Positions 8,244 through 55,261 of a DNA stretch of 64,000 nucleotides are shown in pieces. Location of the stretch: positions 28,618-92,617 of the forward strand of contig CANQVC010000001.1 of assembly GCA_947627195.1 (NCBI GenBank), written 5' to 3'. The position numbers and the translations under genes were made by a program. Each line of letters starts with the position of its first letter. Positions within the stretch are counted from its first letter, which is position 1. The DNA is from an uncultured Bacilli bacterium (GTDB lineage: Bacteria > Bacillota_I > Bacilli_A > ML615J-28 > CAG-698). The notes under the pieces were generated by a model. The model worked only from the letters and a program-made list of their open reading frames with translations. It did no database searches and was not told where the DNA came from.

Positions 8244-8256
8244 TGATTAAATATTT

Positions 8257-8305
8257 AGGAATAAAGAATAAAAAAATTATATAAATAAAAATATTCTTTA
8301 TTCCT
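8257..8305. repeat. Perfect 14-bp inverted repeat (aggaataaagaata / tattctttattcct) with a 21-nt A-rich loop
   Basis: Read directly from the sequence. It lies between the giant gene stop (8243) and the RBS of the next gene. No U-tract follows it, so it is not a canonical intrinsic terminator. Confidence 0.7.
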
Positions 8306-8330
8306 CATCTATTATTAATGAAGGAGGAAT

Positions 8331-10811
8331 ATGGAAAAACTTAAAGTAAGAGTAACACTTATTATTGTTTTTATTTTACTTACAATCATTACAGCTTTTA
8401 CTCTTTTCTATAATATGTATATCCAACAATTCTTTTCGGATATTAATCATGATATATTTATTCATCAAATTGAATCATATTCTGATCAAATAAATATAAA
8501 AATAGAAGAAGAAAGAAAAGAATTACAAAGAAAAGTAAATGATTATTTAAATCAAAACAAAACAACTGAAGAAATAATGAGTGTAGATGAATTAAAAAAT
8601 AATTATCAAATTATAATTTATCAAGAAGAAAATATTCTTCCCTCTGTTAAAAATAATTTTTTATTAGAATCTTATTTTATTGGATATGAAAAAAATATTT
8701 TCACCAATTATTCTTCAAATGAAAGTATTATTATATATCCAATAGAAACAAATGATGAAACAATATTATTTATTCATCCTGTATTTGAATTTATTGAAGA
8801 AATAACCAAACAAAATAGTTATAATGGTTCATATTTTATTGTCACATCAGAAATGGATACTGTATATCAAAAAGAATATTCATCATTAGGCTTTGATGAA
8901 TATATAGGTAAACCAAGATATTCATTTACTCAAAATGAAGAACATTATGAAAAAGATAGTGTCGATGGTAAAAGTTCATATGTCTATTTTGATACAATTG
9001 ATAATTCCTTAGAAACAGATCGTATATATTATTTAGTAGTTGTCTATTTAACAAAAACTCTAAAATCATCATATAAATCTGTTACAATATTTTCAATTGT
9101 ATATGCATTATTTGCCATTGGTTGTGCGATTCTTTGTGCATGGGGTGGTTATAAAGTAATTGAACATCGTACTGAAGATTTCTTAAGAACTTCATTTACA
9201 TATCGTCGTAATAAGAAAATAATAATTAAAATAACTAAAAATGGTAAGATTTGTCGAAAGAATTATGTTGCAAATCAATCTATTTTAGGAATGAAAAAAG
9301 CTAAATATTTAGAAAATATTTTAGTATATCAACCAATTGAACAAGTAATGGAAAAAATTCATGATCAAGATACATTTGAAATAACTGTTAAAGATCATGA
9401 TAAAGAAGACATTGTTTTACTTTGTACAGTATATGCGCAATTAAAAAATTATATTTTAATTTGTCAAAATGTTACTGAAGAAAGTCATGAAAGTCAAAGA
9501 ATTAAAGCCATTGCTTGGTATAATAGTGTCACAAATCTTCCTAATTTAAATAAATTAAAAGAAGATTTAGATAATGCTTTAACTAAAATAAAAGATGAAC
9601 ATCAAGGATCTATTATAATTGTTGACATTAAAAAGTTTAGAGCAATAAATCGTGTCTTTGGTAGAAATAATGGTGATTTAATATTACAAAAAGTTGCTGA
9701 ACAACTAGCGACATTAAGAGATGAACATATTGATTTATATCATATGGATACTGATATCTTTGTTTTATTACTTCATGATTATCTAAAAATTGAAGAAGCA
9801 ACACAAAAATCATTGCAAGATATTCGTAATATCTTTAAACAACCATTTGAAGTTAGAGGTAATTTATTATCTATTCAAATTAAAATGGGTGTATGTTATT
9901 TAGAAAAAAGTGCAATGATGAATTCAGATGTAGCTATTAAAAACGCCAAAAATGCTCTTAAGAGTGTCAAAGGTAGTAGAAATACTGATGTAGCTATATA
10001 TGATGTTAAAGTTGGACTAGCAACTTCTCAAGATACTTTAATAGAAAGTGATTTAATTAAAGGAATTCAAAATGAAGAATTTATTATGTATTATCAACCA
10101 CAATATTCTTTGATTACAAAGAAAATCGTTGGCTTTGAAGCTTTAATTCGTTGGAATAATCCTAAATATATTAAAATATCTCCTGAAACTTATATTAAAG
10201 TAGCAGAACAAAATAATATGATTATTGAAATTGGTAATTTAGCATTCCATATGATTTTCAAGAAAATGAAAGAATTAGAAGGAATGAATATTACAATGTC
10301 AATTAATGTTTCTCCAGTTCAATTATTACAAGAAGGATTTGTTCATCAATTCATTTCCTTAATTGAACAATATAAAATAAATCCTAAAATGTTAGCTGTG
10401 GAAATAACAGAAACATTCTTAATGGAATCATTTGATGAAGTTATTCATAAACTTCGTCAATTGAAAGATTATGGCATATCAATTCATTTAGATGATTTTG
10501 GTACTGGATATTCTAGTATGTTATATTTAAAAGAATTACCAATTGATGCTATTAAGATTGATAAAGAGTTTACTAAATATATTATGAATGATAAATATAG
10601 TAAAGCAATAGTTAGTAAAATAATCTCATTAACAAAAACATTAGAATTATTAGTAATTGTTGAAGGGGTTGAAACAGAAAAACAATCAGAAATGTTATCT
10701 AAATTTGGTTGTGATGTCATTCAAGGATATTTAATTGGTAAACCAATGGATGAAGAAGAAATGTTAAAAGTGATTGATAAATACAATCACCCAAATAAAG
10801 CAAAGGAGTAA
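8331..10811 (+). CDS. Membrane sensor protein: TM, extracytoplasmic domain, TM, PAS-like, degenerate GGDEF, intact EAL (predicted c-di-GMP phosphodiesterase)
   Basis: RBS GGAGGA precedes the ATG. The GGDEF position reads HMDTDIF, which is degenerate. The EAL set is complete: FEALIRW, SINVS, EITE, DDFGTGYSS, KIDK, EGVET, QGY. Confidence 0.85.
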   Translation: MEKLKVRVTLIIVFILLTIITAFTLFYNMYIQQFFSDINHDIFIHQIESYSDQINIKIEEERKELQRKVNDYLNQNKTTEEIMSVDELKNNYQIIIYQEENILPSVKNNFLLESYFIGYEKNIFTNYSSNESIIIYPIETNDETILFIHPVFEFIEEITKQNSYNGSYFIVTSEMDTVYQKEYSSLGFDEYIGKPRYSFTQNEEHYEKDSVDGKSSYVYFDTIDNSLETDRIYYLVVVYLTKTLKSSYKSVTIFSIVYALFAIGCAILCAWGGYKVIEHRTEDFLRTSFTYRRNKKIIIKITKNGKICRKNYVANQSILGMKKAKYLENILVYQPIEQVMEKIHDQDTFEITVKDHDKEDIVLLCTVYAQLKNYILICQNVTEESHESQRIKAIAWYNSVTNLPNLNKLKEDLDNALTKIKDEHQGSIIIVDIKKFRAINRVFGRNNGDLILQKVAEQLATLRDEHIDLYHMDTDIFVLLLHDYLKIEEATQKSLQDIRNIFKQPFEVRGNLLSIQIKMGVCYLEKSAMMNSDVAIKNAKNALKSVKGSRNTDVAIYDVKVGLATSQDTLIESDLIKGIQNEEFIMYYQPQYSLITKKIVGFEALIRWNNPKYIKISPETYIKVAEQNNMIIEIGNLAFHMIFKKMKELEGMNITMSINVSPVQLLQEGFVHQFISLIEQYKINPKMLAVEITETFLMESFDEVIHKLRQLKDYGISIHLDDFGTGYSSMLYLKELPIDAIKIDKEFTKYIMNDKYSKAIVSKIISLTKTLELLVIVEGVETEKQSEMLSKFGCDVIQGYLIGKPMDEEEMLKVIDKYNHPNKAKE

Positions 10812-10817
10812 AAAAAT

Positions 10818-12686
10818 ATGCATATATTAACTATCTTATTTGCGGAACTTAAAATTAATAATGCTGGTGCTGTAGTATTATCTATATTAGCATTCTTTGC
10901 TATTCTAGTTGGATTATATTTTTTATGCCGAAGTGTTATTAAAGAATTTAAACGCATAAGAGATGAAAAAATCAACTTAATCGAAGGATTAGAAAGTAAG
11001 AATGATTTATTATCTGACATTGATTATTACATAAGTAAAATGTCAACTTCTGGCTCCTTTACTTTAATGTTAATTGAACTTACTTCATATGGCGATGTTA
11101 TTAGTGCATTTGGAGAACGTTCAGCTGTCACAGTATTAACAAAAGCAGCTCACAAAATTCAAAGTGTTTTACCTAAAGGCTGTCAAATGACAAGATATAA
11201 AGAAAATCAATTTTTGATTTTCTATAAAAATGTCATGGATAAAGATATTGTTACTGAAAAAGCTGAATTAATAATGGAAGCAATGCAAGATAATATCAAA
11301 GTTATGGGAAATGCCAATGTACGTTTAATTGGTAATATGGGTATAACATTTTATCCAATTCATGCAAGAAGTACTAAAGAATTATTAAAGAATTTAAATC
11401 TTGCTTTATATTTAGCTCGTAAAAATGGTAATAATCAATTCTTAATATATTCTAATGATAATCAAAAAGAAGTTGATAATCTTGCTTATTATCAACAAAT
11501 CAATGAAGGTATTAAACAAAAAGAATTCTGTTTGTTTTATCAACCAATTGTTGATATGAATAGTAATGAAGTAATTGCTTTAGAAGGATTACTTAGATGG
11601 AATCATCCAACATTAGGCGTTGTTCCTCCATATAAATTTATTAATATCATGGAACAATCTGGTGATATTATTTGGGTTGGTAACTGGGGCTTTGAATCTT
11701 TAGTTAAAGAATATTTTGAAGTAACTAAAGAATGTCCAGATAAAAAGATTATGTTTACATTAAATCTTTCACCTAAACAATTAATTTATGAAAACTTAGT
11801 AAATGATTTTGCGAAAATAGTTCGTAAATATAAAATTAATACTAGTGACTTTTGTTTTGAAGTAAATGAAATTACTTTATATGGAAAAGATCCTGTTCTA
11901 ACAAAAAATCTTGATAAATTAAATGAATTAGGTTTTAAAATAGCTATTGATGGATATGGTGTTGATTATGGTATGATGATGACTAAATCAACAAATCAAG
12001 CACCAATTAATTATATTAAGTTAGATAGAGACTTTGTTGAACAAATAAGTGACCCAATAAATCAAAAAATGTTAGATATGTTACTTGTTTATTCTGAAGA
12101 AAGACAAGTTACAATTATTGCACAAGGAATTGAAACCCAAGAAAATGTTAATGCCTTAAAAGAACATAAAATTTATTATGGACAAGGATATTTCTATTCA
12201 ATGCCATTGGATGCGGAAGATTCTATTGCTTATATTAATCACGAACAACGTAGATTTAATTCTGGTGATGGATCACAACATATTTCAGTAGAAGAATTAG
12301 ATGAAAAATTCAAAACTAATGAAAATAAACAAGAAGAACTAAAACAAGAAGATAAAACTAAAGTAGAACCTACTAAAGAAGATAAAGTTCCAAAAGAAAA
12401 TAAACAAGAGGAACCAAAACAAGAAGAAAAACCTAAAGTAGATCCTACTAAGGAAAATGAAGTTCCAAAAGAAAATAAGCAAGAAGAACTAAAACAAGAA
12501 GATAACCCTAAAGTAGAATCTACTAAGGAAAATGAAGTTCCAAAAGAAAATAAGCAAGAGGAATCAAAACAAGAAGAAAAACCTAAAGTAGAACCTACTA
12601 AAGAAAGTAAACCTAGGGATAAAAAATCTAAAGTAGTAAACAAAGACAACAAAGATTCTACTTCAGGAAAGAATAACAAAAAATAG
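10818..12686 (+). CDS. Single-TM protein with degenerate GGDEF and degenerate EAL plus a K/E/P-rich repeat tail (candidate c-di-GMP receptor rather than enzyme)
   Basis: RBS AAGGAG. The GGDEF position is YKENQF. EAL motifs are altered: EGL for EAL, IDGYGVDYG for DDFGTGYSS, QGIE for EGVE. The C-terminus carries four 25-aa repeats. Confidence 0.8.
   Translation: MHILTILFAELKINNAGAVVLSILAFFAILVGLYFLCRSVIKEFKRIRDEKINLIEGLESKNDLLSDIDYYISKMSTSGSFTLMLIELTSYGDVISAFGERSAVTVLTKAAHKIQSVLPKGCQMTRYKENQFLIFYKNVMDKDIVTEKAELIMEAMQDNIKVMGNANVRLIGNMGITFYPIHARSTKELLKNLNLALYLARKNGNNQFLIYSNDNQKEVDNLAYYQQINEGIKQKEFCLFYQPIVDMNSNEVIALEGLLRWNHPTLGVVPPYKFINIMEQSGDIIWVGNWGFESLVKEYFEVTKECPDKKIMFTLNLSPKQLIYENLVNDFAKIVRKYKINTSDFCFEVNEITLYGKDPVLTKNLDKLNELGFKIAIDGYGVDYGMMMTKSTNQAPINYIKLDRDFVEQISDPINQKMLDMLLVYSEERQVTIIAQGIETQENVNALKEHKIYYGQGYFYSMPLDAEDSIAYINHEQRRFNSGDGSQHISVEELDEKFKTNENKQEELKQEDKTKVEPTKEDKVPKENKQEEPKQEEKPKVDPTKENEVPKENKQEELKQEDNPKVESTKENEVPKENKQEESKQEEKPKVEPTKESKPRDKKSKVVNKDNKDSTSGKNNKK
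12318..12614 (+). repeat. In-frame tandem repeat, four 75-nt units encoding KENKQEE(L/P/S)KQE(D/E)xxKVExTKExxVP
   Basis: Units start at 12318, 12393, 12468 and 12543. They are near-identical at both the DNA and protein level. Confidence 0.9.
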
Positions 12687-12695
12687 TAATACATA

Positions 12696-12730
12696 AAAGG
12701 ATTGATTCATTATTGGATCATCCTTTTTAT
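12696..12730 (+). terminator. Rho-independent terminator after the GGDEF*/EAL* gene
   Basis: Hairpin aaggattgat...atcatcctt followed by ttttt. Confidence 0.6.
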
Positions 12731-12847
12731 TATCTAAATATACATAATTTACTCGTATAAAACAGTTTTCATCATCAAATAATAAATAAAAAATAAAATC
12801 AAGTTATAGTACAGATTATGAAATTTTAAAAAAATATGGATTACTTC

Positions 12848-12876
12848 TTGACAGAAAATGCAAAATAATATAAAAT
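12848..12876 (+). promoter_or_regulatory. Sigma-A-type promoter
   Basis: TTGACA, 17 nt spacer, TAAAAT, about 75 nt upstream of the GTG start at 12954. Confidence 0.55.
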
Positions 12877-12953
12877 ATTGTCATAGGTTTTATTGAACAA
12901 ATAAATTAAAAAAGCATGTATCAACAAAATTACATCGTATTGGGGGCTTTGGT

Positions 12954-14084
12954 GTGGAAATACTGAATAATATATTGTGGATACTCGTATTAATCGAAAT
13001 GATTTTCATTCATTGCTTTATGGTTGATTTATTTTTTGAAAGAAAAATGGCAAAATGGAAAGTAACATTAGTTTGCTTAGTAGTTGGTGTTGTATTACTA
13101 ACTGTATCATTTTTGTTAATTCCAGATATGTCTGAAAATATTAATCTAGCGGGATGCTATATTTTATTAGGTGTAATATTTTTAATTCCATTAGGTTTAT
13201 GCTATAAAGTATCTATAAAGAAGTTAATATTAGTTTCACTAATTGTATGGATATATATTTCATTAGGATTATTCCTAGGAATATTTGTTTCATTTTTCTT
13301 TAATGATTATCATGTTTTAATAACATTCATTGTCCAAACATCATGTCATGTTTTATATTTAATTTTATTTAGAAAATTCATTTATAATATATTTATTCGA
13401 ATATTTGAAGAAATGGATAGTCAAGTAGAATTAAAATTCTTAATTACATCATTTATTACTTATGCAACATTAATTGCTGGAAGCTATGCTCTAATATTTA
13501 ATGATTATGATTGGATAAAATTATGCTTTGTTGTATTATTTGGTGTTGATGTTTCCATGTATTTTTCTATTATAATCAATTTAATTGATGTAACACAATC
13601 AAGAAAAACAATGCGTACAATGGTTTATATAGATGGAATTACTAAATTACCAAATCGTAATGCATTCATTGCTGATTTCAATGAAAAAGTAGAAAAGAAT
13701 GATAAATTTTGTATTGTATTCATTGATTTAGATAGATTTAAATCAATTAATGATGAACATGGACATAATGCAGGAAATAGATATTTAAAATTCTTTGCTG
13801 ATTATGTTAAAGAATATTTCCCTGAAGATTTCTTTTATCGAATCTATGGAGATGAATTCTTATTATTATCAAATGATGAAAAGTTTGAAATTGAACAAAA
13901 AATGAAACATTGTCAAAAAGCAATTAAAAAAGAAAAATTCTTAAATGGTATGTTTTTAGGATTTTCATTTGGAACTGTAAGTTATCCAGATGATGGCGTA
14001 AGTCGTGAAGAATTGGTAATGAAAGCTGATCAAAAGATGTATTCAGAAAAACAAGGTAAAACTGAAAATCGAATATTTGATTAA
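12954..14084 (+). CDS. Polytopic membrane protein with a C-terminal GGDEF domain (YGDEF variant; putative diguanylate cyclase)
   Basis: GTG start 6 nt after TGGGGG. The first ~200 aa contain about 6-7 hydrophobic segments. The GGDEF domain reads FIDLDRFKSINDEHGHNAGN...RIYGDEFLLL. There is no RxxD I-site. Confidence 0.8.
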   Translation: MEILNNILWILVLIEMIFIHCFMVDLFFERKMAKWKVTLVCLVVGVVLLTVSFLLIPDMSENINLAGCYILLGVIFLIPLGLCYKVSIKKLILVSLIVWIYISLGLFLGIFVSFFFNDYHVLITFIVQTSCHVLYLILFRKFIYNIFIRIFEEMDSQVELKFLITSFITYATLIAGSYALIFNDYDWIKLCFVVLFGVDVSMYFSIIINLIDVTQSRKTMRTMVYIDGITKLPNRNAFIADFNEKVEKNDKFCIVFIDLDRFKSINDEHGHNAGNRYLKFFADYVKEYFPEDFFYRIYGDEFLLLSNDEKFEIEQKMKHCQKAIKKEKFLNGMFLGFSFGTVSYPDDGVSREELVMKADQKMYSEKQGKTENRIFD

Positions 14085-14098
14085 AAATAAGAATGACA

Positions 14099-14124
14099 TA
14101 AAGGGCAATATATGCCCTTTTTTA
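14099..14124 (+). terminator. Rho-independent terminator
   Basis: aagggca-atata-tgccctt followed by tttt. Confidence 0.75.
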
Positions 14125-14264
14125 ATATAAAAATATAACAAAATAAATTATTTTATTATATAAAAATTTCCTATTATAAAATATATTTTAAGAAAATATT
14201 TCCTTATTTCTTACTAACAATTTTTTCCTATATTAATTTTTATTTCAATTTTAAGTTCATTTAT

Positions 14265-14293
14265 TTGACATAAATTTCAAAATGTGATAAAAT
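14265..14293 (+). promoter_or_regulatory. Sigma-A-type promoter with extended -10
   Basis: TTGACA, 17 nt spacer (ending tga, giving TG-n), TAAAAT, about 80 nt upstream of 14373. Confidence 0.55.
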
Positions 14294-14372
14294 TCATATA
14301 TAAAATGGGTTATTATATATTTTTTATTATAAACTGACAAAATTTACCTAAAACTTTGGAGGATATAATATC

Positions 14373-16160
14373 ATGCATAAAAATTTGCTCATTCTCTTTT
14401 CTTTTTTACTCATTTCCTGTTTTTTAATAGGATGTGATCATACTAATAACGATGATGTAATTACTTTAAAAATTGCAACTTCAATTGAAAAAGAAAAAGA
14501 AATTAAAACAGTTGTTTCGCAATTTAACTCATCACAAGAACAATATAATATAGAATTAGATGTTTCTAAAAGTGATGATAAATTATATTATTATTTAAGA
14601 AACGATGCAATTGACGCTGATATGGTTACATTTGATAATTTAAATGATGCTAATCTTTATCAAAAACAATTACAACCATTAAATCAATTTGAAGCAGTTG
14701 CAAAATATCAAAGTACAATTATAAATTATATAAAAACTGAAGATGACATATTAAATGCTATTCCTGCTCCAGGTCATTTTTATACTCAATGTTACAATAA
14801 AGATTTATTTGAACAACACAATTTCAATTATCCCGAAACAATTTCTGATTTAATCAATTTAGCAAGAAGAATGCAAGATTATCAAGGATCTTGTATTACT
14901 TATGGTGATATTGATATGTATATGAACATTTTAATGGAAATTGCTATTCCAACATTCGTCGCTTCCACAAAAGGTGTCACATTTATGAAAGATTTTTATG
15001 TTGGCAATACTAGTATTGAAGAAAGCCCATATTTAAGTGAATGGCAAACAATATTTTTAGAATATCTTTCTTTATTTCGTTATGAATATTATAAAACATC
15101 ATTTGAAGGATATAGTATTGAAGATGCTAGTAATATATTCTTTAATGGAAAATATCATTCAATATTAAATACTCCTGAATTTGATGCTGATTATGAATAT
15201 AATCAAAGAGACCCTAATTTTGAATGTGTTTTATATCCATTTGTTGGTAGAACTGCTAATCAAAAATGGGTTGCTTCTAAACCATTATATTATATTGGTA
15301 TTCAAAAAAAAGCTATCCAAAATGAAGATCATTTAAATGGAATTGAAGCATTTTTAGAATATTATGTATCAGAAGAAGGACAAATGGCAGCCTTATCTGA
15401 TGAAAATGGTAATACTAGAAATAATTGCGTATCATATGTGAAAGACATTCCAATTGTTTTAAATGAATTTCATCAACCATTAGAAGAAGCCTTACGTACA
15501 GGCAAAGTATGTTTAGTTGATACATTTGAAAGTATTTTTTCTTTAGTAAGTAATCATTTAAAAGAATATGTCAATGATGAATTAAGTATGAATGATTTAA
15601 TTAGAACAATTGATTTAGAAATAAAAGAACATTCTAAAGAAGAAAAAGCTGATTATAATGTCACATCATCATTTGATTATCCAGAAAAAACAATAACATC
15701 AGAAACTAGAATTGGCAATTATATTATTGATGCCGTTCGTTTACAAACAAATGTCAATGCTGCAATATTACCTAGTAATATTATTGATGGCAATTTATTT
15801 AGTGGTAATCTATATGAAAGTGATTTACCAATCCTATTCAATGATACAACATGTTATGCTGTCCAAATAAGAGGATCAGGATTAAAGAAAATAGTTTTTT
15901 CAATGTCTAATGAGAACTTCTTATTAATATCTGGAATTAGAATTCATCGTGATTCATCTGATTTATATTTCTTAAACAATCAAAAGATAAGAGATGATCA
16001 ATTAGTTTATATTTTAATCCCTGAAATATATTTAGATGAATATCAAGATGATATTGTTGCCCTTGGAAAAAGTTTTTCCATAATTAATTTATTACAAGAA
16101 TATTTTAAAACAGAAAATAAAATAACTCCACCAAAAAAAGATGGTAGATATGGAGAATAA
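14373..16160 (+). CDS. Lipoprotein: family-1 solute-binding-protein-like N-domain fused to a 5'-nucleotidase C-terminal-like (nucleotide-binding) domain
   Basis: Signal peptide with lipobox LIGC. The N-part has a sugar-type SBP pattern. The C-part RIGNYIIDAVRLQTNVNAAILPSNIIDGNLFSGNLYESDLPILFNDTTCYAVQIRGSGLKKIV matches the 5'-nucleotidase_C signature (lGNliaDA...G.it..dl..vlPF.n.l....l.G..lk). No metallophosphoesterase domain is present and no ABC permease or ATPase gene is nearby. Confidence 0.7.
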   Translation: MHKNLLILFSFLLISCFLIGCDHTNNDDVITLKIATSIEKEKEIKTVVSQFNSSQEQYNIELDVSKSDDKLYYYLRNDAIDADMVTFDNLNDANLYQKQLQPLNQFEAVAKYQSTIINYIKTEDDILNAIPAPGHFYTQCYNKDLFEQHNFNYPETISDLINLARRMQDYQGSCITYGDIDMYMNILMEIAIPTFVASTKGVTFMKDFYVGNTSIEESPYLSEWQTIFLEYLSLFRYEYYKTSFEGYSIEDASNIFFNGKYHSILNTPEFDADYEYNQRDPNFECVLYPFVGRTANQKWVASKPLYYIGIQKKAIQNEDHLNGIEAFLEYYVSEEGQMAALSDENGNTRNNCVSYVKDIPIVLNEFHQPLEEALRTGKVCLVDTFESIFSLVSNHLKEYVNDELSMNDLIRTIDLEIKEHSKEEKADYNVTSSFDYPEKTITSETRIGNYIIDAVRLQTNVNAAILPSNIIDGNLFSGNLYESDLPILFNDTTCYAVQIRGSGLKKIVFSMSNENFLLISGIRIHRDSSDLYFLNNQKIRDDQLVYILIPEIYLDEYQDDIVALGKSFSIINLLQEYFKTENKITPPKKDGRYGE

Positions 16161-16162
16161 AT

Positions 16163-19100
16163 ATGGAGAAAAATATGAAAATAAAAATTAATAAAATTAA
16201 TTTATTTATATTATTATTAGCTTTTAGCTGTTTATTTTTAATTTCCGGATGTAAAACAGAAGAAAAAATAAAAAATACCCCAGTTGTAGTTGATTTTGAA
16301 GTTCGAGGTATTAAAGAAAAATATTCGCAAAATGAAATTGTTGACGTAGGACAATGGAAAATAATTTTACATTTATCAGATGAATCAACCACAACAATTG
16401 ATGCATTTGATCCTAATCTAACAATAGGTGAAGTTAATACTGATGAAATTGGTGAAAAAACATTTAGTATCATCTATTCATTAAGTGATGGACAAACAAT
16501 TGAAAAAAGTTACACATATGAAGTAATTCAAATTGTTGTTACCCTTGATTTTAATGGCGGAACATATGATGATAAATCATCAACAGAACTAGTTGCAACT
16601 GCAATGCAAGTAGATGTAAGTCAAATAATACCAACTAAATTAGATGAATTTGGTACACCTTTAAAATTTTCTGGTTGGTTTTATGATCAAGCATTAACAA
16701 CTCGTGTTAATTATGTAGCTGATGGCTTTATATCTACATCTGAAAGTATAACAATATATGCGGGATATGATGTTGATTATACTAATATATTTGAATATGA
16801 AATTCGTGATGATAATACTGTTGAAATATTAGGAATCACTAATGATGGTATTCTTAACTTTATGATGGAACCAGAACTAGTAATTCCTGAAACAATTGAA
16901 TTATATCCTGTTACATCTATTGGTGATTTATTTATCTTTACAAGAGACCCATTAACAAATGAAAAAGATGAAACATTTAGTTGGACAGTATTTATCAATA
17001 TTGATACAATAGTTTTCCCTGAAAATAGTAAAGTTACTCATATTGGTAAAAGAGCATTTGAAGCAATGCAAATTTCTAGTGTTCAATTTCCTAATACATT
17101 AGAAACAATTGGTGAAGCTGCTTTTCGTTCCACAGCTTTAGCAGGAGATTTAGTTTTACCAGCATCATTAAAAACAATTGGTGATTATGCATTCCAATAT
17201 GTATCAGGAGCTTTAGAAAATATTTCTTTTGCTAGTGGTAGTGAATTAAAACACATTGGACGTTATGCTTTTGCTTCATGTAGTACAGTAGTATCAATTA
17301 CCTTACCTAATTCATTAGAAGAAATTATGTCAAATGCCTTTGATGGCTGTACACAAATTGAAACAATTACTATTCCAAGTAATGTTCATTCAATTGGTTT
17401 ATATGCATTTAAATCAATGAGAAGCTTAAAAGAAATTAATGTTGATCCTAATAATGCCACATATAGTAGTTTAGATGGTGATCTATATTCAATTGATCAT
17501 AAAACAATTATTCGTTATTGTTATGGAAAACAAGAAGAAACATTTGTTTTACCAGAAACTGTGGAAATAATTGAAGAAGGAGCATTTAATATTTTTAATG
17601 ATATTACTTCTTTAAAAACAATAGTTTTAAATGAAGGATTAAAATATATTGGCTCTGATGCTTTTTCGGGATGTTCAATGACATTTAAACTTCCCTCAAC
17701 ATTAAATGAAATTGCTACCCAAGCATTTAATGGTTGGAATGGCGATTCATTTGAAATAGACCCTGCTAATCAAACATTTACTGTATATCAAGGTATTTTA
17801 TATAGTAAAGATATGAAAACATTATATGCTGTACCAAGAAACTTAAAAGATGTTACATCATTAGTATTAGATCCAAGAGTAGAACTTATTAAAAGTCATG
17901 CATTTTGTGGAAACACAACAATTCGTTATATAACAATTCCTGAAAATAGTAATTTAAATAAAATTGATGAATATGGATTAAATATTTATTCAATGTCAAG
18001 TTTAAAAGGAGTTTATATTTTCAAACAAACTCCATTTGAAGTAGTTAATGGTGCTTTTTATGAACAACATAACTTTGTGGCAAATAATGTAACAGTATTT
18101 GTCTTAGGTAATAATTTAAATAGTTATAAAGAGGCTTGGAAAAATTATCAAAACAATTCAGAAACAGTTGAAAATTATAATATTCAAGATAATATCGTTG
18201 ATTGTTTAAGTGCGAAAGAAAGATTATTAGATTATCTAAAAGAAACGACAAAATACATAAGTTATGAAACTTATAATAAAGGAGTAACACCTTATATTAA
18301 ACAAGATTTTGCTTCCATGAAATATACTTTCCAAGCAACTCTTGATTATTTAATATCATTATATCAAGAAGATGATATTAATAATGATGTATATAATTAT
18401 TTCAAATTATTTGAACAACAATTATATGAAATTGCTGCTGATTATTTCTTAGATACTTATAATAATTTACATTCTTTTGATAATTTAGATTTAAAATATT
18501 TAGCTGATATTGTTACAAGATACAATGAATGTCCAAAAATAATTCAAGATGCCATTAATGAAAATTATTTAAAATTAAAATCATTATATGATGAAATCAA
18601 TAATATTGAAGCTACTAGACAACAAATTATTAATGAACTTATTAATTTCCCATGTAGTGCTACGCAATTTGATGCGGAAAAATTTAATGAACTAAATCAA
18701 AGATTTATTGCCGCTAATATGGATGCTATTTCTTTACCAGAATCAGTATTTTATAAATATCAATTATTAGATGCCTCAAGTAAAATTGCTGAATTATTAG
18801 CTATTGAAACATTTTCTTTAGATAACAAAGTAAGAGCAAGAACATTAATTCAAGGTGATTTTACTAATATGGGAATTAATAGTATCTTAGAATCTTTCTT
18901 AAGAACAGATGAAAGTCGTAAAGACTTATATCGTTATCAAGATTATCTAACAAAAGCCATGCAATTTAGTGAATATGAAGCAAATGATATTGTTGCTATC
19001 CAAGAAGAAGTAGCATCATTTGATTTATCTAGTGAATGTCCAATAGAAACAATGGAAGAATTATTTAGAAAAATTGATTCGTTAACAAACATCTATGAAT

Positions 19101-19732
19101 TAGATAGTTTTGAATATAATTACATCGATAAAATATATGCGATTCATCTAAAACATGATATGTTATTTGTAATCAATAATGGCAATGAAATAACTGAAGA
19201 AAATAGTATTGATTTATATTTATCATGTATGAATGTGGAAATGTGGGTTATGATGTTGATGTATAGTGTTGATTATTCAACATTCCAAGAACAATTAGCT
19301 ACTGAATTTAGCCTATATGATGTTAAAAATCAAGAAATTACAACTTATATCAATGATCAATTATCATCTATTTATAGTGATATTGAAGATTTATCAACAT
19401 TTTCATCAACAAAATATTTAGAATTAGTTTCTAAAATAGAAAAATTAAATGGACATTATGAATTAATGGATTTTGAAGCTTATCATCAATATTTCATTTT
19501 AGGAATTTCTTATCAAATTGATCAATTATTAAATCAATATACATCAGTAACTAAAGATAATTATCAAGAAATTGATTATATCTTAAATGGTTATTATGAT
19601 AAAGAAAATGATGAAACAATTAATGGTATTGAATCATTAATTGCTCAATCAGGATTATATGAAGATTTATCAACATATATTTATCGTTATGATGAATATC
19701 TTGAATTCTTAAATTTATTCAATGAATTTTAA
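16163..19732 (+). CDS. Lipoprotein with a Listeria-Bacteroides repeat, BspA-type leucine-rich repeats and a ~550-aa helical C-terminal region
   Basis: Lipobox LISGC. VTLDFNGGTYDD...FSGWFYDQALTTRV is Flg_new-like. There are repeated IGxxAFxxCxxLxxIxIPxxVxxIGxxAF units. The start lies 2 nt after the upstream stop; an alternative ATG is at 16175. Confidence 0.8.
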   Translation: MEKNMKIKINKINLFILLLAFSCLFLISGCKTEEKIKNTPVVVDFEVRGIKEKYSQNEIVDVGQWKIILHLSDESTTTIDAFDPNLTIGEVNTDEIGEKTFSIIYSLSDGQTIEKSYTYEVIQIVVTLDFNGGTYDDKSSTELVATAMQVDVSQIIPTKLDEFGTPLKFSGWFYDQALTTRVNYVADGFISTSESITIYAGYDVDYTNIFEYEIRDDNTVEILGITNDGILNFMMEPELVIPETIELYPVTSIGDLFIFTRDPLTNEKDETFSWTVFINIDTIVFPENSKVTHIGKRAFEAMQISSVQFPNTLETIGEAAFRSTALAGDLVLPASLKTIGDYAFQYVSGALENISFASGSELKHIGRYAFASCSTVVSITLPNSLEEIMSNAFDGCTQIETITIPSNVHSIGLYAFKSMRSLKEINVDPNNATYSSLDGDLYSIDHKTIIRYCYGKQEETFVLPETVEIIEEGAFNIFNDITSLKTIVLNEGLKYIGSDAFSGCSMTFKLPSTLNEIATQAFNGWNGDSFEIDPANQTFTVYQGILYSKDMKTLYAVPRNLKDVTSLVLDPRVELIKSHAFCGNTTIRYITIPENSNLNKIDEYGLNIYSMSSLKGVYIFKQTPFEVVNGAFYEQHNFVANNVTVFVLGNNLNSYKEAWKNYQNNSETVENYNIQDNIVDCLSAKERLLDYLKETTKYISYETYNKGVTPYIKQDFASMKYTFQATLDYLISLYQEDDINNDVYNYFKLFEQQLYEIAADYFLDTYNNLHSFDNLDLKYLADIVTRYNECPKIIQDAINENYLKLKSLYDEINNIEATRQQIINELINFPCSATQFDAEKFNELNQRFIAANMDAISLPESVFYKYQLLDASSKIAELLAIETFSLDNKVRARTLIQGDFTNMGINSILESFLRTDESRKDLYRYQDYLTKAMQFSEYEANDIVAIQEEVASFDLSSECPIETMEELFRKIDSLTNIYELDSFEYNYIDKIYAIHLKHDMLFVINNGNEITEENSIDLYLSCMNVEMWVMMLMYSVDYSTFQEQLATEFSLYDVKNQEITTYINDQLSSIYSDIEDLSTFSSTKYLELVSKIEKLNGHYELMDFEAYHQYFILGISYQIDQLLNQYTSVTKDNYQEIDYILNGYYDKENDETINGIESLIAQSGLYEDLSTYIYRYDEYLEFLNLFNEF

Positions 19733-19752
19733 AAACGAAAGAAGGGGTGCAT

Positions 19753-22700
19753 ATGATAGAAAACGGAGATATACTCGTTAGTTTTTCTATTCAGACAATT
19801 GAAAAATGTGTCATTCAATGTCATCAACACATGGAAGTTAAAAGAATGCCATTGTCTGAATTTTTCCAAACTTACTTATCTCCTGAAAAGCTTGGTATCG
19901 AAGAAGATGGCTACAATTATGAATCTTTTTGTGCCTTTGCTTTAAAAGAAAAAGCAAGTACGATAACAACATATTATTCTAAACAAAATTTATGTTTATA
20001 TCGTTTTATGTTTTTCCAATCTGCTCATTCTAATATTATATTGTGCTCCTTAATTCGTATAACGAATACTGAAAATAAAGATTATTTCACCAATCGTGAT
20101 GTCTTAACAGGAGTTTATACTAGAAGTACTTTATTACAAAAATTAGAGAAAAGTTTTAAAGACGAAACTTGTCATAATTATTCTATCGTTTTACTTGATT
20201 TAAATGATTTTAAACATGTTAATGAAATATATGGTAGAGGTATCGGTGATAAAAGTTTAAGTGAAATTGCTTTAAGTTTACAAAATATTTTCCATAATCA
20301 AATGATATGTCGATATGGTGGCGATGAATTCTTTGTTTTACTAGAAAATTGTGATAATATACAAATTGAGGAATATATTCAAAAATTATTAGATTATGAA
20401 TATTATGTATCAGATCAAGATCGTAGTAAAATAAGAGTAACAATTAGAGCAAGTATTGTAAGTATTAATGATGAAATAAAAAGTATGGCAGAAGCACTTG
20501 ATGCTGTAACATCAACACTTGCGGAAGTAAAGAAAAAACGTCGCAATGCGGTAATGATATATCAAGGTAAAACTTATTTTAGTCGAGCTAAAACAGATCC
20601 ATTAAAACATTTATCAATGCATATTCATTCTAAACCAAAAAAGAAAAAAGAAAATATGCGTTTATTTACTGAAGAATTAAAAGCGCGAAGAATTCGTAAT
20701 TTTGCTATTTTATTAGTTTTAGTCTTATTATTATTATGTTCATCAATTTTAGTTGGTAGTATATTAACAAGACAATTAAATACTAAAAAAACAGAAGAAG
20801 CAACTAATATTATGAATGATATTTCTAGTCAAATATCTTCAAATATTTCTTCAAGTATTGAAAGTTGGAATAGTCAATTAATAATTGCTAGTAGAATGCT
20901 TTCTAATATTGAAGAAGGCGATAATTATGAAGAATATTTAAATCGAACATTACAAATAGTTGGTAACACAATTACCTTCGATGAAATAGCATTATTACTA
21001 GAAAGTGGTGACTTATATTTTAATTCAACTACTGAATATAATATAGCTTCCGAAGATCTTGCCAAAAATATCATTATTGAAAGAAAAGAATATATAGGTA
21101 GTCTATATATTAATTATTGGGGTGAAAGAATTGCTTTTGCTATTCCATATGATGGTATTGAATCAGAACTAAATGATCCAAATAGCAATCGTATTTATGG
21201 ATTAGTAGGTTTATTAACAATCGAAAATTTCTCTAAATTATTATATTCTGATGCTTTTTCTGAACAGGCTTATATGTCATTAGTCCAAAAAGATGGTAAT
21301 AGATTAATTACCTCATTAAATGTTAATGAAGGTACATATGCCCCATATAATGTCTATAATGCCTTTAAGAAATATGCTAATGAAAGTGAAATGGAAGTTT
21401 TAGAACAATCTTTAAATGAAGGTAAAACTAATATCATGAATTTACAAGTTGGTAAAACAAATTTCTTAACATATTGTACGAAAATAGATGATGATTCAAT
21501 TGATTGGCGAATTATTATAATGGTATCAACTGATATCGTCTTAAGTAGTGTTACAGGGGTATTTGAAAGATTAGGATATGGTGTATATATTGCATTATTT
21601 TTCTTTGTATGTATTGTATCTGTAATGGTTTATATTCATAATCAATTAAGAACGAAAAATCAAATGTTAACATATATGGATAAATTAACTAACGATATAA
21701 ATGATGAAAGATTTAAGATTGATGCCGAAACATTAATTAAAAGAAATGGTTCTACTAATTATTGTTTAGTTTATATGAATTTTTCTAATTATAAATATGC
21801 TCGAGAATTATTTGATACAGCAACAATTAATAAAATATTAAAAGAAGTATTTGAAGTAGTTCATAAATCACTTAATTTCAATGAATTAGAAACTAGATTA
21901 TCAGTTAATAATTATGTTATTTTAATGGAATATACAACTGAACAAGTAATTAAACAACGATTAATGGAAATTCAAAATCGTCTTAACGAAACAATTCATT
22001 TAGATGATTTAATGAGCATTATTGTTTCATTCGGTGTATATATTTTACCACCACAATATAAAAGTATCGTTGTTGCCATTGACCGTGCTAGTGAAGCCCA
22101 AAAACTTGCGGAAAACAGAATTGATTCTCATATGATTTCATTCTTTGATGAAAAGATGATGGCTCATGCAATGGAAGAAATGGAATTAGAAAAGAATCAA
22201 GATAAAGCCTTAAAATCTGAAGAATTTACTGTATATTATCAACTTAAAAAAGATATTCAACAAGATAAATGGGGTGGAGTAGAAGCATTAGTTCGATGGA
22301 AAGATCCTGTGAAAGGAATGGTATCTCCAGGTAAATTTATTCCTTTATTTGAAAAGAATGGTTTTGTAATTAAAGTTGATTTATATGTATTTAGTTGTGT
22401 ATGTCGAGATATGCGTCGCATGTTAGATGAAGGAATTACGCCAGTTCCTGTCAGTGTCAACTTATCAAGAAGACATTTAATGATTGATCATTTCTTAGAT
22501 GAATTTGTTACCATTATGAATCAATTTAATATTCCAAGAGAATTAATCGAATTTGAATTAACTGAAGGAATGATTTTTGAAAACGAATCTATTTTATATG
22601 ATGTCATTCATCAAATTCATGAAATCGGATGTCGTTGTTCTATTGATGATTTTGGTAGTGGGTATTCATCATTAAATATGTTGAAAGAATTTGATTTTGA

Positions 22701-22953
22701 TGTTATTAAATTAGATCGTAAATTCTTTTATGGAATTAATGGTTTCGATGAAAACTCAAAAACAATTGTTCGTTCATTAACGGAATTATCTCATCAATTA
22801 GGTAAAGAAGTAGTTGCGGAAGGAATAGAAGATGAACAACAAGTATCATTCTTAAGAAATATTTCTTGTAATTTAGTTCAAGGATATTATTATGCTAAAC
22901 CAGTTCCATATGATGAATATATTGTTAAATTAAATCAACATAAAGTTCAATAA
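19753..22953 (+). CDS. GGDEF (canonical), TM, dCache-like sensor, TM, degenerate GGDEF, EAL protein (predicted bifunctional c-di-GMP enzyme)
   Basis: ATG at 19753 lies 5 nt after AAGGGG; the ORF-track GTG at 19747 is less likely. GGDEF1 is [11 protein letters not shown]. Two TM segments flank ~260 aa that end [10 protein letters not shown] (Cache-like). The second GGDEF position is SVNNYVIL. The EAL set is complete: [41 protein letters not shown]. Confidence 0.85.
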
Positions 22954-22968
22954 AATTTAAAAAATATA

Positions 22969-22997
22969 TTGAAAATAATGTAATAAAATGTTATAAT
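22969..22997 (+). promoter_or_regulatory. Sigma-A-type promoter of the metK leader
   Basis: TTGAAA, 17 nt spacer, TATAAT. Confidence 0.65.
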
Positions 22998-23002
22998 GTA
23001 AG

Positions 23003-23136
23003 TACCATAAAGAGAAGGTTAGAGACAAGCTCAATGATCCTTCAGCAACCATTCCTAAAAAAAGGAAACGGTGCTAAAACTTGTATGATGGGATTTATAA
23101 AAATTAAAGTCCCGTTTAATTACGGGATTTTTTATA
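23003..23136 (+). ncRNA. SAM-I (S-box) riboswitch with intrinsic terminator
   Basis: AGAGAAGG..AGAGAC..GCTCAATGATCC..CAGCAACC...GGTGCTAAAAC matches the S-box core (GCAACC, GGUGCUAA). Terminator gtcccgt-ttaatt-acgggat plus tttttt at 23109-23135. It lies directly upstream of metK. Confidence 0.85.
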
Positions 23137-23174
23137 TTCCTCATCTAATTAATAAATCATATTTGGAGGAAATT

Positions 23175-24323
23175 ATGAACGAAAAAAAATTTTTTACATC
23201 AGAATCAGTAACCGAAGGACATCCTGATAAAGTATGTGATTTAATTGCTGATAGCATCTTAGATGCTTTCTTAGAAGGAGATAAAAATGCTCATGTTGCT
23301 TGTGAAGTTGTCGCAACAACTGGCTTAGTTATGGTTATGGGAGAAGTAACTGCTGACACATATGTTGATATTCAAGGAGTTGTCAGAAGAGTTGTCGATA
23401 AAATTGGATACAATCGTGGTAAAATTGGATTTGATGCCGAAAATTTAGCCGTAGTTGTGACTTTAGATGAACAGTCAACAGATATTGCCATGGGAGTTGG
23501 AAACGATACAGGCGCAGGAGATCAAGGAATGATGTTTGGCTTTGCCACAAACGAAACTAAAGAATATATGCCTGCTCCAATTATGCTTAGCCATAAATTA
23601 ACTAAAAGATTAGCCGATTGTCGTAAGTTTGATTTAGATGATATTTTAAGACCTGATGGTAAAGCCCAAGTAACTGTTGAATATGAAAATGGTAAAGTAA
23701 AAAGAATTGATAATATTGTTGTATCAACACAACATAGTAATAAAATATCAATTGAAACTTTAAGACAATATGTAATGAATAATGTAATTAAAAAGGTAAT
23801 TCCTAGTGAATTATTAGATGAAAATACTAAATATTATATCAATCCTACAGGAAGATTTGTCATTGGTGGACCAAAAGGTGATACAGGATTAACAGGAAGA
23901 AAAATAATTGTTGATACATATGGTGGATATGCTCATCATGGTGGTGGAGCATTTAGTGGTAAAGATCCATCAAAAGTTGATAGAAGTGCTGCTTATATGG
24001 CAAGGTATGTTGCTAAAAATTTAGTAGCAGCAGGTTATTGTGATAAATTAGAAGTAGGATTAAGTTATGCCATTGGGGTTAGTGAACCAACATCAATTAT
24101 GATTGATGATTTTGGTACAAGTAAAATAGGTAATGATGAAATTATTAAAATAATTCGTCAAGTTTTTCCATTAACGCCAAAAGGTATAATTGATTATTTT
24201 GATTTAAGAAGACCAATATATGCCATGACTACTAATTATGGACATTTTGGTAAAGATTATCTTCCATGGGAAAAATTAGATAAAGTCGATGAATTAAAAA
24301 AATTATTAGATAGTATCAAATAA
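23175..24323 (+). CDS. metK: S-adenosylmethionine synthetase
   Basis: RBS GGAGGA, ATG at 23175. The protein begins [34 protein letters not shown] and [19 protein letters not shown] are present. The ORF-track start at 23034 overlaps the riboswitch. Confidence 0.97.
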
Positions 24324-28373: not shown

Positions 28374-28379
28374 TTTATT

Positions 28380-28555
28380 GCCTGGAGAGTTCGCGTTTGT
28401 ACACATATGCGAACCGAACAATATTACATAGGGAGTTGAGGCGTTTCTGGCGTGAATGCTCATATTTATATGAGAATCCCGAAGCTACGCAAAAAGAGAT
28501 TTCCACCTTAGCGTGAACGAAGGTTCACATCAGTATTAACGGCTTTCTGGGTTTT
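28380..28555 (+). ncRNA. Structured small RNA, candidate 6S RNA (ssrS-like)
   Basis: An island of roughly 45% G+C in AT-rich DNA with its own promoter. The 5' CCUGGAGAG (28381-28389) pairs with the 3' CUUUCUGGG (28543-28551). A central hairpin CUCAUA-UUUA-UAUGAG sits at 28459-28474, exactly mid-molecule. Length is ~175 nt. ACCGAAC lies at RNA position ~33-39. Confidence 0.5.
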
Positions 28556-28587
28556 AATTTATTATAATAATTATCATTATTGTCATT

Positions 28588-49540: not shown

Positions 49541-49664
49541 ACATGTAATAAATAAAATAATAAAAAATATTAAATATAATTGTAGGAAATAATCAATTAA
49601 TAATAATTTATAAATATTTAATTTATATATAATATATATAATCAAAGAGGTGCATAAAAACAAT

Positions 49665-50366
49665 ATGAAAAACATAAAATTATTTAGTTTCCTAAATAAA
49701 GTCTTTGCAGTAATTTTATATAGTTTTATTATCTTAGCTATTTTATTTTTATATGTTGTTATTAAATCAAAGAAAAATAATGATGTTGTAAGTATTATGA
49801 ATCATCAGATAAGAATAGTAACATCTGAATCAATGGAAAAAGGGAGCAAAGAAACAAATCAATATAAAATTAAATCTCTTCCTTTAAAAAGTATGATCAT
49901 AATTGAACAAGTAGATAATAACCATGAATATGAATGGTATCAATCATTAAAAGTAGGGGATGTATTAACATTTAAATATGTTTATATTAAACAAGAAACA
50001 ATTACCCATCGTATTATAAATATTCAAGAAGTTGATAATGGTTTTATCATTACATTACAAGGAGATAATCAAGATATTGAAAGTAATACATCTTCTCAAA
50101 CAATTGATACAAGAGATATTAATAGTCCTAATTACATAATTGGTAAAGTAGTTTATAAAAATGTTTTATTAGGAAAAATAATATATATTTTAAAACAACC
50201 AATTGGTATTGGATGTTTAATAATTCTACCTTCATTTATCATTATTATTTTAGAAATAATTAAAATAATTAATATTATAAATGAAAAGAAAAAGAAAGAA
50301 ACTGAAGAAGAAATTAACTTGTTAAAGAAGAGAATAGAGACTTTACAGAAAGGAGGAGAACAATGA
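49665..50366 (+). CDS. sipW: Signal peptidase I, SipW (ER/archaeal) type
   Basis: N-terminal TM. Catalytic-Ser motif VTSESMEK (compare SGSMEP). ITHRII (compare THRIV) and LQGDNQ are present. A C-terminal TM is present as in SipW. The start is either ATG 49665 or GTG 49650. Confidence 0.8.
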   Translation: MKNIKLFSFLNKVFAVILYSFIILAILFLYVVIKSKKNNDVVSIMNHQIRIVTSESMEKGSKETNQYKIKSLPLKSMIIIEQVDNNHEYEWYQSLKVGDVLTFKYVYIKQETITHRIINIQEVDNGFIITLQGDNQDIESNTSSQTIDTRDINSPNYIIGKVVYKNVLLGKIIYILKQPIGIGCLIILPSFIIIILEIIKIINIINEKKKKETEEEINLLKKRIETLQKGGEQ

Positions 50367-50983
50367 ATAAAAAAAGAGTCATCATAATATCATGTCTTAC
50401 CATTCTAGCTTGTTTAATGATAATTTGTGGAAGTACATTTGCCCTATTTACTAAAAATGTCACCACCACCCAACATTTACAAGCGGGACATCTCGACCTA
50501 ACATTACAACGTGAAAAATTAGTAACTAATAAATTACAAGAAAATGGCACAATGAAAGAAGAAACAAATAATCAATTAATTGATTTTACAAAAAGTACAA
50601 ATGAAAATCTATTTGGTATTAAAGAAATAGACAAAGTTGTACCTGGAAGTAGCTATGAAGCAACATTAATATTAAAAAATCTTGGTGATGTAGCCATTGA
50701 TTATTACATTGAAATTGTTATAAAAAATGGTGAAGAAACCGAATTAATTAAACAATTACAATTAACATTCATCGATATAAAAACTAATACTACTAAATCA
50801 AATTTATTATCTAATGGGTTACAAATGGGAAGTGAAACAGAAAGTATTGGTCAAGTATTAAAAAATGAAAGTACAAAATTTCAAGTTAAATTAATGTTTT
50901 TAAATCAAGAAAATGTTAATAATGATGCTTTTGATCAAGAAGTCGAATTTGATTTAATCGTTCATGCAACACAAAGTATTTAA
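50363..50983 (+). CDS. TasA/camelysin-like secreted protein with a SipW-type signal peptide
   Basis: CGSTFALFTKNVTTTQHLQAGHLDLTL matches the TasA-family signature (GTFAxFxD...AGTLDL). VPGSSYEATLILKN is present. The C-terminal strand is FDLIVHATQ. The start overlaps the sipW stop by 4 nt. Confidence 0.75.
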   Translation: MNKKRVIIISCLTILACLMIICGSTFALFTKNVTTTQHLQAGHLDLTLQREKLVTNKLQENGTMKEETNNQLIDFTKSTNENLFGIKEIDKVVPGSSYEATLILKNLGDVAIDYYIEIVIKNGEETELIKQLQLTFIDIKTNTTKSNLLSNGLQMGSETESIGQVLKNESTKFQVKLMFLNQENVNNDAFDQEVEFDLIVHATQSI

Positions 50984-50996
50984 AAAGGAGAAGAGA

Positions 50997-54731: not shown

Positions 54732-54752
54732 AACAAATATAGTGAAGATAAA

Positions 54753-55247: not shown

Positions 55248-55261
55248 ATGAGGAGGAATAA

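Follow-up and report, generated by a model that had tools for sequence, protein, structure and literature searches.

Three adjacent genes in a stretch of DNA from an uncultured Bacilli bacterium raise the question of whether a solute-binding protein (SBP) encoded without a transporter can inform a membrane enzyme that turns over cyclic di-GMP (c-di-GMP). The stretch, hereafter the window, comprises 64,000 nucleotides of contig CANQVC010000001.1 (GenBank assembly GCA_947627195.1, positions 28,618 to 92,617); it has a GC content of approximately 25%, and its DNA was matched in rabbit and other gut metagenome runs. The genes, referred to as g1, g2 and g3 and situated at 14373-22953 of the window, encode respectively a lipoprotein with SBP and 5′-nucleotidase C-terminal-type (5′NT-C) domains, a lipoprotein with leucine-rich repeats (LRRs), and a transmembrane (TM) protein with GGDEF and EAL domains. 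A preliminary description, made from the sequence of the window, had proposed the SBP-like protein as a candidate co-sensor for the neighboring enzyme. The analysis presented here indicates that the three genes probably constitute one conserved extracytoplasmic sensing unit feeding a c-di-GMP enzyme in this low-GC gut Firmicute. As a prediction, the co-sensor role is supported by comparative genomics, namely by the synteny of the trio, the lack of transporter genes beside it, and the homology of the g3 sensor to that of certain kinases.

Conservation of the trio and of its sensor domain

An exhaustive hidden Markov model search returned 307 relatives of g1, 40 of them at E<1e-30 (approximately 570-660 aa), and a word-indexed homology search returned one. 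Wherever enough downstream DNA was available, a g1-like gene, an LRR_5 gene and a gene for a TM GGDEF/EAL protein follow one another in this order on the same strand (7 of 7 informative loci: the window, L001, L003/L004, L009, L010-L012, L013, and L014). Across these loci the LRR_5 protein measures approximately 1160-1230 aa and the TM GGDEF/EAL protein approximately 870-1090 aa, with pairwise identities of 21-39% and GC contents of 26-55%. The flanks are unrelated between loci, and feature nrdD/NYN/ECF-S in one case, and lspA/rluD/RNase HII/mutS2, ThiF, glutathione peroxidase, or AraC/FGGY in others. Because the same order is kept amid differing flanks in every locus, g1-g2-g3 is a conserved unit, and a chance adjacency of the three genes is rejected by the synteny. 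The preliminary description had suggested examining whether the triad is conserved in related genomes, and this is what the comparison found. Adjacency of g1 and g2 extends to 9 loci when two short contigs are added to the trio loci, and in every locus but L009 consecutive genes either overlap by 4 nt or are separated by no more than 53 nt.

A second line of evidence comes from more distant members of the family. SBP-5′NT-C proteins from Lachnospiraceae and Oscillospiraceae metagenome-assembled genomes (MAGs) match the g1 profile with E-values of 1e-10 to 1e-17 and exceed the Pfam cut-offs for both domains. In 3 of 3 loci examined, their genes directly adjoin hybrid histidine kinases, with genes for Hpt, LytTR, or response regulator (RR)-GGDEF-EAL proteins nearby. 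These kinases have the topology seen in g3, in which a loop of approximately 250 aa lies between two TM segments. Furthermore, the kinase loops align with the g3 sensor profile over 234 columns in hhalign (97% probability, E 4.8e-11), compared with 0.06% for a control, the periplasmic loop of a neighboring GGDEF-EAL protein in the window. An SBP-5′NT-C lipoprotein is thus accompanied by the g3-type sensor domain in both branches, although the cytoplasmic outputs differ. No other finding argues as strongly for an action of the SBP through the sensor.

A dedicated transporter partner was sought as well. No ABC-transporter domain was found in any scanned open reading frame (ORF) of at least 120 aa in the 64-kb window, and no SBP-dependent ABC permease or ATPase adjoins any family member in 10 loci. 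The only related finding is a GntR/ABC2 exporter-type pair in L018, located 4 kb away on the other strand. The earlier statement that no ABC transporter genes lie nearby therefore holds for the window, and extends to the neighborhoods of the homologues. Within the DNA covered, neither the co-conservation test nor the transporter test suggested in the preliminary description refuted the co-sensor idea.

Some individual loci have features of their own. In L001, the public minus-strand gene call at 14620-15102, at the contig end, is probably wrong and was rejected; the plus strand encodes the start of a g3 orthologue, with a g3-like N-terminus and the beginning of a GGDEF domain (DFLTGVYSRS...IDLDNFK). 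The g3 orthologue of L003/L004 is divided into two genes by a frameshift at approximately 7100, inside the sensor loop. Contigs from two separate samples show the split at identical coordinates, and it may reflect either a genuine pseudogene or a systematic error of assembly. L016 carries at 5446-15539 a hybrid histidine kinase and two tandem 5′NT-C lipoproteins (P0053 and a 637-aa protein matching 5_nucleotid_C only), together with a LysR regulator, an Hpt protein, and an RR-GGDEF-EAL protein. A phosphorelay in this locus may link an SBP-5′NT-C sensor indirectly to c-di-GMP.

Two lipoproteins and a split c-di-GMP enzyme

Residues ~28-420 of g1 correspond to a family-1 carbohydrate-type SBP fold and residues ~440-595 to a 5′NT-C domain. 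In the window protein, Pfam scores lie just below the cut-offs (SBP_bac_1, 25.9 bits vs. 26; 5_nucleotid_C, 19.9-22.5 bits vs. 23.6), and relatives reach 39-54 bits for 5_nucleotid_C and, in one case, 56.6 bits for SBP_bac_1. An AlphaFold2 model based on a 125-sequence alignment has a predicted local distance difference test score (pLDDT) of 94.8 and a predicted template-modelling score of 0.90; with an alignment of only two sequences the pLDDT was 42 and the model unusable. In a Foldseek search the best match of the well-supported model is 3quf (E 3.7e-18, target-normalised template-modelling score 0.79, ~410 alignment columns). The top matches are all family-1 carbohydrate or dinucleotide SBPs; besides 3quf they include MalE, RafE, MsmE, and a protein that binds chito-oligosaccharides. 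A sequence search of the PDB likewise gave sugar/solute ABC-transporter binding proteins as the best matches.

A profile of the C-terminal ~170 residues of g1 matches 5′-nucleotidase C domains over their full length (3ivd, 4.7e-9; 2z1a, 5e-8; UshA, 5e-5; CD73, 4e-3). No metallophosphatase catalytic domain is found in g1, which has no Metallophos match and whose residues 28-420 are occupied by the SBP fold. The protein is thus an SBP fused to a non-catalytic 5′NT-C module, and a role as nucleotidase is rejected because there is no catalytic domain. At the position of the NGGGIR-type motif, which presumably supplies the nucleotide-contacting Asn and Arg in CD73, window g1 reads LPSNIID, and the Arg column varies among R, Y, N, L, K, and D across the subfamily. 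Since this canonical contact motif is lost, the 5′NT-C module probably does not bind nucleotides and is more likely a docking module.

Both g1 and g2 had been described as surface lipoproteins. Lipoboxes can be read from the sequence in each (LIGC with Cys21 in g1; ISGC with Cys30 in g2), with a Cys that is nearly invariant among g1 homologues and invariant among those of g2, and so this part of the description stands, with lipidation as a prediction. A BspA-type LRR_5 (PF13306) region occupies residues ~280-640 of g2 in three stretches (156 bits vs. a cut-off of 27.7). The N-terminal region matches Flg_new weakly and below threshold in the window, and at 22.7 bits, still below threshold, in the L009 orthologue. 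For the C-terminal tail of ~540 aa no relatives were found by Pfam, word-indexed homology, or PDB sequence search. Full-length orthologues of g2 align end to end at 28-33% identity. Against the HupY/LrrG adhesin model g2 scores 75.6 bits (cut-off 1250) and is not an equivalog member.

The g3 protein consists, in order, of an N-terminal cytoplasmic region of ~110 aa, an intact GGDEF domain, TM1, an outer loop of ~265 aa, TM2, a degenerate GGDEF domain, and an intact EAL domain (Table 1). Hydropathy plots support the two-TM topology, as do the positive-inside flanks. All 5 orthologues having the N-terminal region keep RYGGDEF unchanged (GGDEF scores 118.5 bits in Pfam for the whole protein), and none of the six g3 orthologues departs from the EAL catalytic motifs. 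The orthologues can be aligned over their whole length, outer loop included, at 25-39% identity. Judged by their motifs, the cyclase before TM1 and the phosphodiesterase after TM2 both look active. The preliminary description had named a GGDEF-EAL architecture; both domains are present, but the additional intact N-terminal GGDEF had been overlooked, and the GGDEF adjacent to the EAL is degenerate. It had also described a Cache-like domain of ~260 aa between two TM segments. The loop length and the two TM segments are as described; the resemblance to dCache_1 (PF02743) appears below threshold, in orthologues. This is the only Pfam family that recurs among the g3 loop orthologues, with E-values of 4e-6 to 3e-3 overall. 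The L010 alignment covers profile positions 2-240, which is the whole profile, and the kinase loop of L017 scores 17.7 bits. A weak PDB match falls on the chemoreceptor 6mni, and the word-indexed homology search returned no relatives of the loop.

Table 1. Features of the g1-g2-g3 unit, its boundaries, and the loci that carry the trio (window coordinates)
Feature	Position	Strand	Description
g1	14373-16160	+	ORF, 595 aa
Ribosome-binding site of g1	14359-14364	+	GGAGGA; read from sequence
5′-nucleotidase C-terminal-like domain of g1	15690-16157	+	ETxIGNY..AD and DGRYG motifs kept; NGGGIR-type Asn/Arg motif lost
g2	16163-19732	+	ORF, 1189 aa; begins 2 nt past the g1 TAA
g3	19753-22953	+	ATG start; alternative ORF-track start GTG at 19747
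g3 N-terminal cytoplasmic GGDEF	20092-20547	+	Intact RYGGDEF, no RxxD I-site; best stretch aa 116-267 (GTG numbering)
g3 TM1	20689-20778	+	~aa 313-342; hydropathy 3.0; Lys/Arg-rich cytoplasmic stretch ahead
g3 extracytoplasmic dCache-like sensor domain	20779-21567	+	~265 aa; motifs [28 protein letters not shown]
g3 TM2	21568-21648	+	~aa 606-632; by hydropathy
g3 degenerate GGDEF	21670-22152	+	SVNNY replaces GGDEF; xSDRF-like in most orthologues, SGGF in L014
g3 EAL	22198-22902	+	214 bits; all catalytic motifs (EAL, N, ELTE, DDFG, KLD, EGIE, QGY)
Intrinsic terminator of upstream GGDEF gene	14100-14120	+	8-bp stem with 4 GC pairs, then T-run; 5′ boundary of the unit
Predicted sigma-70-type promoter	14265-14293	+	TTGACA-17-TGnTAAAAT; TG-extended -10; 11/12 match
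Next promoter, strong	22969-22997	+	Part of 3′ boundary, ahead of metK
S-adenosylmethionine (SAM) riboswitch	23002-23094	+	Rfam 57 bits; ahead of metK
Terminator	23106-23131	+	Just 3′ of the SAM riboswitch aptamer, before metK
L001			Third gene starts at an ATGA overlap and ends at the contig edge
L003/L004			Trio present; third gene split by a frameshift in the loop
L009			Oscillospiraceae MAG; trio present
L010-L012			Human-gut metagenome contigs, three near-identical loci; g3 architecture same as in the window
L013			Trio present
L014			Trio present

A model for signal input and its alternatives

In the mechanism proposed for this unit, g1 would be lipid-anchored on the outer face of the cell membrane as an SBP that no longer serves a transporter, and the cleft of its family-1 fold would bind a ligand, most likely one resembling an oligosaccharide. 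In its ligand-loaded or ligand-free form, g1 would then dock, alone or together with g2, on the dCache-like loop of g3, in the manner of NspS on MbaA and ScrB on ScrC. The resulting displacement of the TM helices could shift the c-di-GMP balance, because the cyclase precedes TM1 and the phosphodiesterase follows TM2. Movement would be passed back through TM1 to the cyclase and forward through TM2 to the phosphodiesterase, and synthesis and hydrolysis could change in opposite directions. The g2 protein would be a fixed third subunit, capturing a macromolecule or a surface (of the host, a food particle, or another cell) or scaffolding g1; this role is presumed.

Several points weigh against this model. 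Contact of g1 or g2 with g3, the class of ligand, and the direction of the change in c-di-GMP are what we infer from the arrangement. The loop of window g3 has no match in Pfam or the PDB, and the orthologue loops remain below the dCache_1 cut-off of 45 bits (L010, 23.3; L003, 27). Three loci form the whole basis for the link to histidine kinases. Also, the g3 orthologue of L003/L004 carries the frameshift mentioned above, and in L009 the genes are separated by gaps of 198 and 376 nt and g3 has no N-terminal GGDEF; neither the tight coupling nor the dual-enzyme layout is therefore universal. Finally, conserved synteny is also compatible with co-regulation without direct contact. According to such an account, g1 and g2 would be a surface pair for nutrient capture or adhesion, g3 would sense a small ligand of its own, and g1 may serve a distal ABC transporter. 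The genes would then be kept together by a need to express surface behaviour and c-di-GMP state jointly. Cache domains usually bind small ligands directly, the closest structural matches of g1 are transporter SBPs, and BspA-type LRR proteins are adhesins, with g2 matching the HupY/LrrG adhesin weakly. The transporter scan covered 64 kb of the genome, and a transporter encoded elsewhere is possible. However, ABC importer genes adjoin none of the 10 family loci, and genes overlap by 4 nt in several loci. Furthermore, a distant SBP-5′NT-C branch is tied to the same sensor domain with another output, which a pairing of SBP and sensor explains more simply. Co-regulation without physical coupling is accordingly considered unlikely.

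Signaling could also run in the opposite direction, as in the LapD/LapG/LapA system, with g3 reading cytoplasmic c-di-GMP, for example by way of its degenerate GGDEF-EAL module, and its outer loop holding or releasing g1 and g2, and thereby controlling the LRR adhesin. The succession of TM segment, periplasmic loop, TM segment, degenerate GGDEF, and EAL recalls LapD, for which the NCBIfam model gives a partial match (100.9 bits vs. 1020), and the partner is a large surface adhesin-like protein. Nonetheless, every EAL catalytic residue is kept without variation among the orthologues and a further GGDEF domain is intact, so that g3 looks like an enzyme and not like a pure receptor, and a role as a catalytically dead, LapD-like receptor is rejected. 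No LapG-like protease is encoded in the unit, and the related sensor domain occurs on histidine kinases, whose signaling runs inward from the cell exterior. An inside-out function is thus improbable. Still less credence is given to the idea that g1 processes or scavenges extracellular nucleotides or nucleosides, with the module reporting extracellular nucleotides. The 5′NT-C homology is real, and dinucleotide binders (7c0k-series) are among the closest SBP structures, yet both the metallophosphatase domain and the NGGGIR-type motif are missing from g1, as described above.

The co-sensor model, in which g1 acts through the g3 loop, therefore remains the favored account of the unit. A broader proposal can be advanced tentatively. 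SBP-5′NT-C fusion lipoproteins may be an unrecognised class of dedicated co-receptors in gut Clostridia that co-evolved with one dCache-like outer domain. This SBP-sensor pair would be joined to a hybrid kinase phosphorelay in some cases and to a split cyclase/phosphodiesterase in others. In the subfamily that carries the trio, the LRR lipoprotein would add the sensing of contact or of a macromolecule, and attachment to the host, a food particle, or another cell would be coupled directly to c-di-GMP.

Genomic setting, known systems, and significance

The ORF coordinates agree with the previously reported spacing of the three genes, at 2 nt and then approximately 20 nt (14 nt if the GTG is taken). 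The ATG of g3 lies 20 nt past the g2 stop and is preceded by a GAAGGGG ribosome-binding site; in a public collection g3 is recorded as a protein of 1066 aa with the ATG start, and the 1068-aa form was not found there. The promoter described ahead of g1 was recovered as an 11/12 match with an extended -10 element. It is a match to consensus alone, and promoter-like matches are not enriched in the window (86 found vs. 98.7 expected for DNA of 25% GC). Only four sites reach 11/12, and three of the four are intergenic and upstream of genes. By position and quality the g1 promoter is plausible, short of proof. As stated before, no terminator is present on the plus strand within g1-g2-g3, and only the two listed in Table 1 bound the unit; none lies between the g3 stop and the metK leader. 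The three genes are presumably co-transcribed. For the L010 orthologue, short contigs spanning both gene junctions occur in two runs labelled 'RNA?'. DNA carry-over is possible in these runs, and the contigs are taken as weak evidence that falls short of proving co-transcription.

Directly upstream on the same strand are genes for a two-TM GGDEF-EAL protein (8331-10811), a GGDEF-EAL protein that begins 6 nt later (10818-12686), and a multi-TM GGDEF protein (12954-14084) with its own 11/12 promoter at 12848. Together with g3, these are four consecutive genes of c-di-GMP turnover. They are preceded by a giant ORF (267-8243; 2658 aa from TTG) that ends 88 nt ahead of the first GGDEF-EAL gene. It has no Pfam match and no predicted TM segment or signal peptide; its repeated GG(I/V)(I/V)GYG-like motifs point to a surface protein with a beta-helical fold, and the ORF may in fact begin further upstream. 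On the other side of the unit, in the metK region (22969-24323), the ORF-track start of metK at 23034 falls inside the riboswitch, and the real start must therefore be further downstream. The match to the Pfam N-domain starts at residue 52. A 6S RNA gene (28376-28557; Rfam 57.8 bits) is found upstream of argS. At 49650-56492, small ORFs without Pfam matches lie around the genes for two larger products, a camelysin/TasA-like protein (Peptidase_M73, 50363-50983) and one of 1255 aa with a weak match to an M26 N-terminal-like domain (50964-54731). This region may be a surface-fibre or protease cluster.

Among known systems, the closest parallels to the unit are found in Vibrio. In the polyamine-responsive NspS-MbaA pair of Vibrio cholerae, a transporter-less SBP encoded beside a two-TM GGDEF-EAL protein docks on the loop of the latter and modulates c-di-GMP turnover (PMC8050422). 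The periplasmic domains of MbaA and ScrC are listed as 'not annotated (dCache-like)' in the review by Matilla, Ortega, and Krell (PMC8050422). The unit described here shares with NspS-MbaA an SBP that is encoded without a transporter next to a two-TM GGDEF-EAL protein with a dCache-like loop. NspS differs from g1 in being a polyamine-binding SBP_bac_8 protein of the Gram-negative periplasm that has no 5′NT-C fusion, lipid anchor, or LRR partner. To our knowledge, MbaA has no GGDEF domain before TM1. No sequence relationship between NspS-MbaA and the present unit came to light, in an analysis that included no test aimed at it. The ScrABC system of Vibrio parahaemolyticus is likewise a three-gene operon, in which the SBP ScrB acts on ScrC, a GGDEF-EAL protein with a dCache-like periplasmic domain (PMC8050422). 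ScrB belongs to SBP_bac_3, whereas g1 has the family-1 fold, and ScrC has a single GGDEF-EAL tandem, whereas in g3 the sensor loop separates the cyclase from the phosphodiesterase. ScrC can operate in either a cyclase or a phosphodiesterase mode. The first gene of the operon, scrA, encodes a cytoplasmic signal-making enzyme and not a surface LRR protein.

SBPs are also established as co-sensors of kinases. The preliminary description had cited LuxP-LuxQ and TorT-TorS, in which a dedicated SBP is the ligand-binding subunit of a membrane sensor (PMC8050422); NspS-MbaA and ScrB-ScrC are closer precedents. In a Gram-positive setting, the CuaD-CuaS-CuaR 'three-component system' of Ruminiclostridium uses an SBP as kinase co-sensor (PMC10384115). 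CuaD is presumably lipid-anchored, being Gram-positive. The Cua, Lux, and Tor systems have a histidine-kinase output, SBPs without 5′NT-C, and no LRR protein, whereas g3 is a c-di-GMP enzyme; the distant SBP-5′NT-C proteins beside hybrid kinases fit the CuaD-type pattern directly. The likeness to LapD lies in the two TM segments, the periplasmic loop, the degenerate GGDEF beside an EAL, and the tie to a large surface adhesin. The LapD EAL is catalytically dead and binds c-di-GMP, whereas the EAL and the extra GGDEF of g3 look active, and no LapG-type protease is present here. The C domain of g1 is homologous to the substrate-binding C domain of UshA and CD73, and g1 has neither their catalytic N-domain nor the Asn/Arg contact motif. 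The repeats of g2 are of the BspA LRR_5 type shared with BspA and HupY/LrrG, and its tail of ~540 aa is unmatched.

By analogy, the unit would belong functionally with NspS-MbaA and ScrB-ScrC, and also with Gram-positive SBP-kinase systems such as CuaD-CuaSR. It is distinct in its SBP-5′NT-C fusion, its obligatory LRR lipoprotein, the splitting of its enzyme into GGDEF, sensor, and degenerate GGDEF-EAL, and its occurrence in gut Clostridia-type genomes. A literature search found no description of an SBP-5′NT-C fusion or of an LRR/SBP/GGDEF trio.

Little is understood of c-di-GMP signaling among the anaerobic Firmicutes of the gut, and for most GGDEF/EAL proteins the signal sensed is unknown. 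The unit offers a defined and testable input pathway, consisting of a soluble lipoprotein domain, a cyclase and a phosphodiesterase that flank the sensor, and an obligatory adhesin-like partner. The soluble domain of g1 should be easily expressed for ligand screening. If SBP-5′NT-C lipoproteins prove to be general co-receptors for one Cache-like sensor, with kinase and c-di-GMP outputs alike, the few SBP-stimulated receptors known would be joined by a Gram-positive family, and receptor-SBP pairs could be predicted from genomes by rule.

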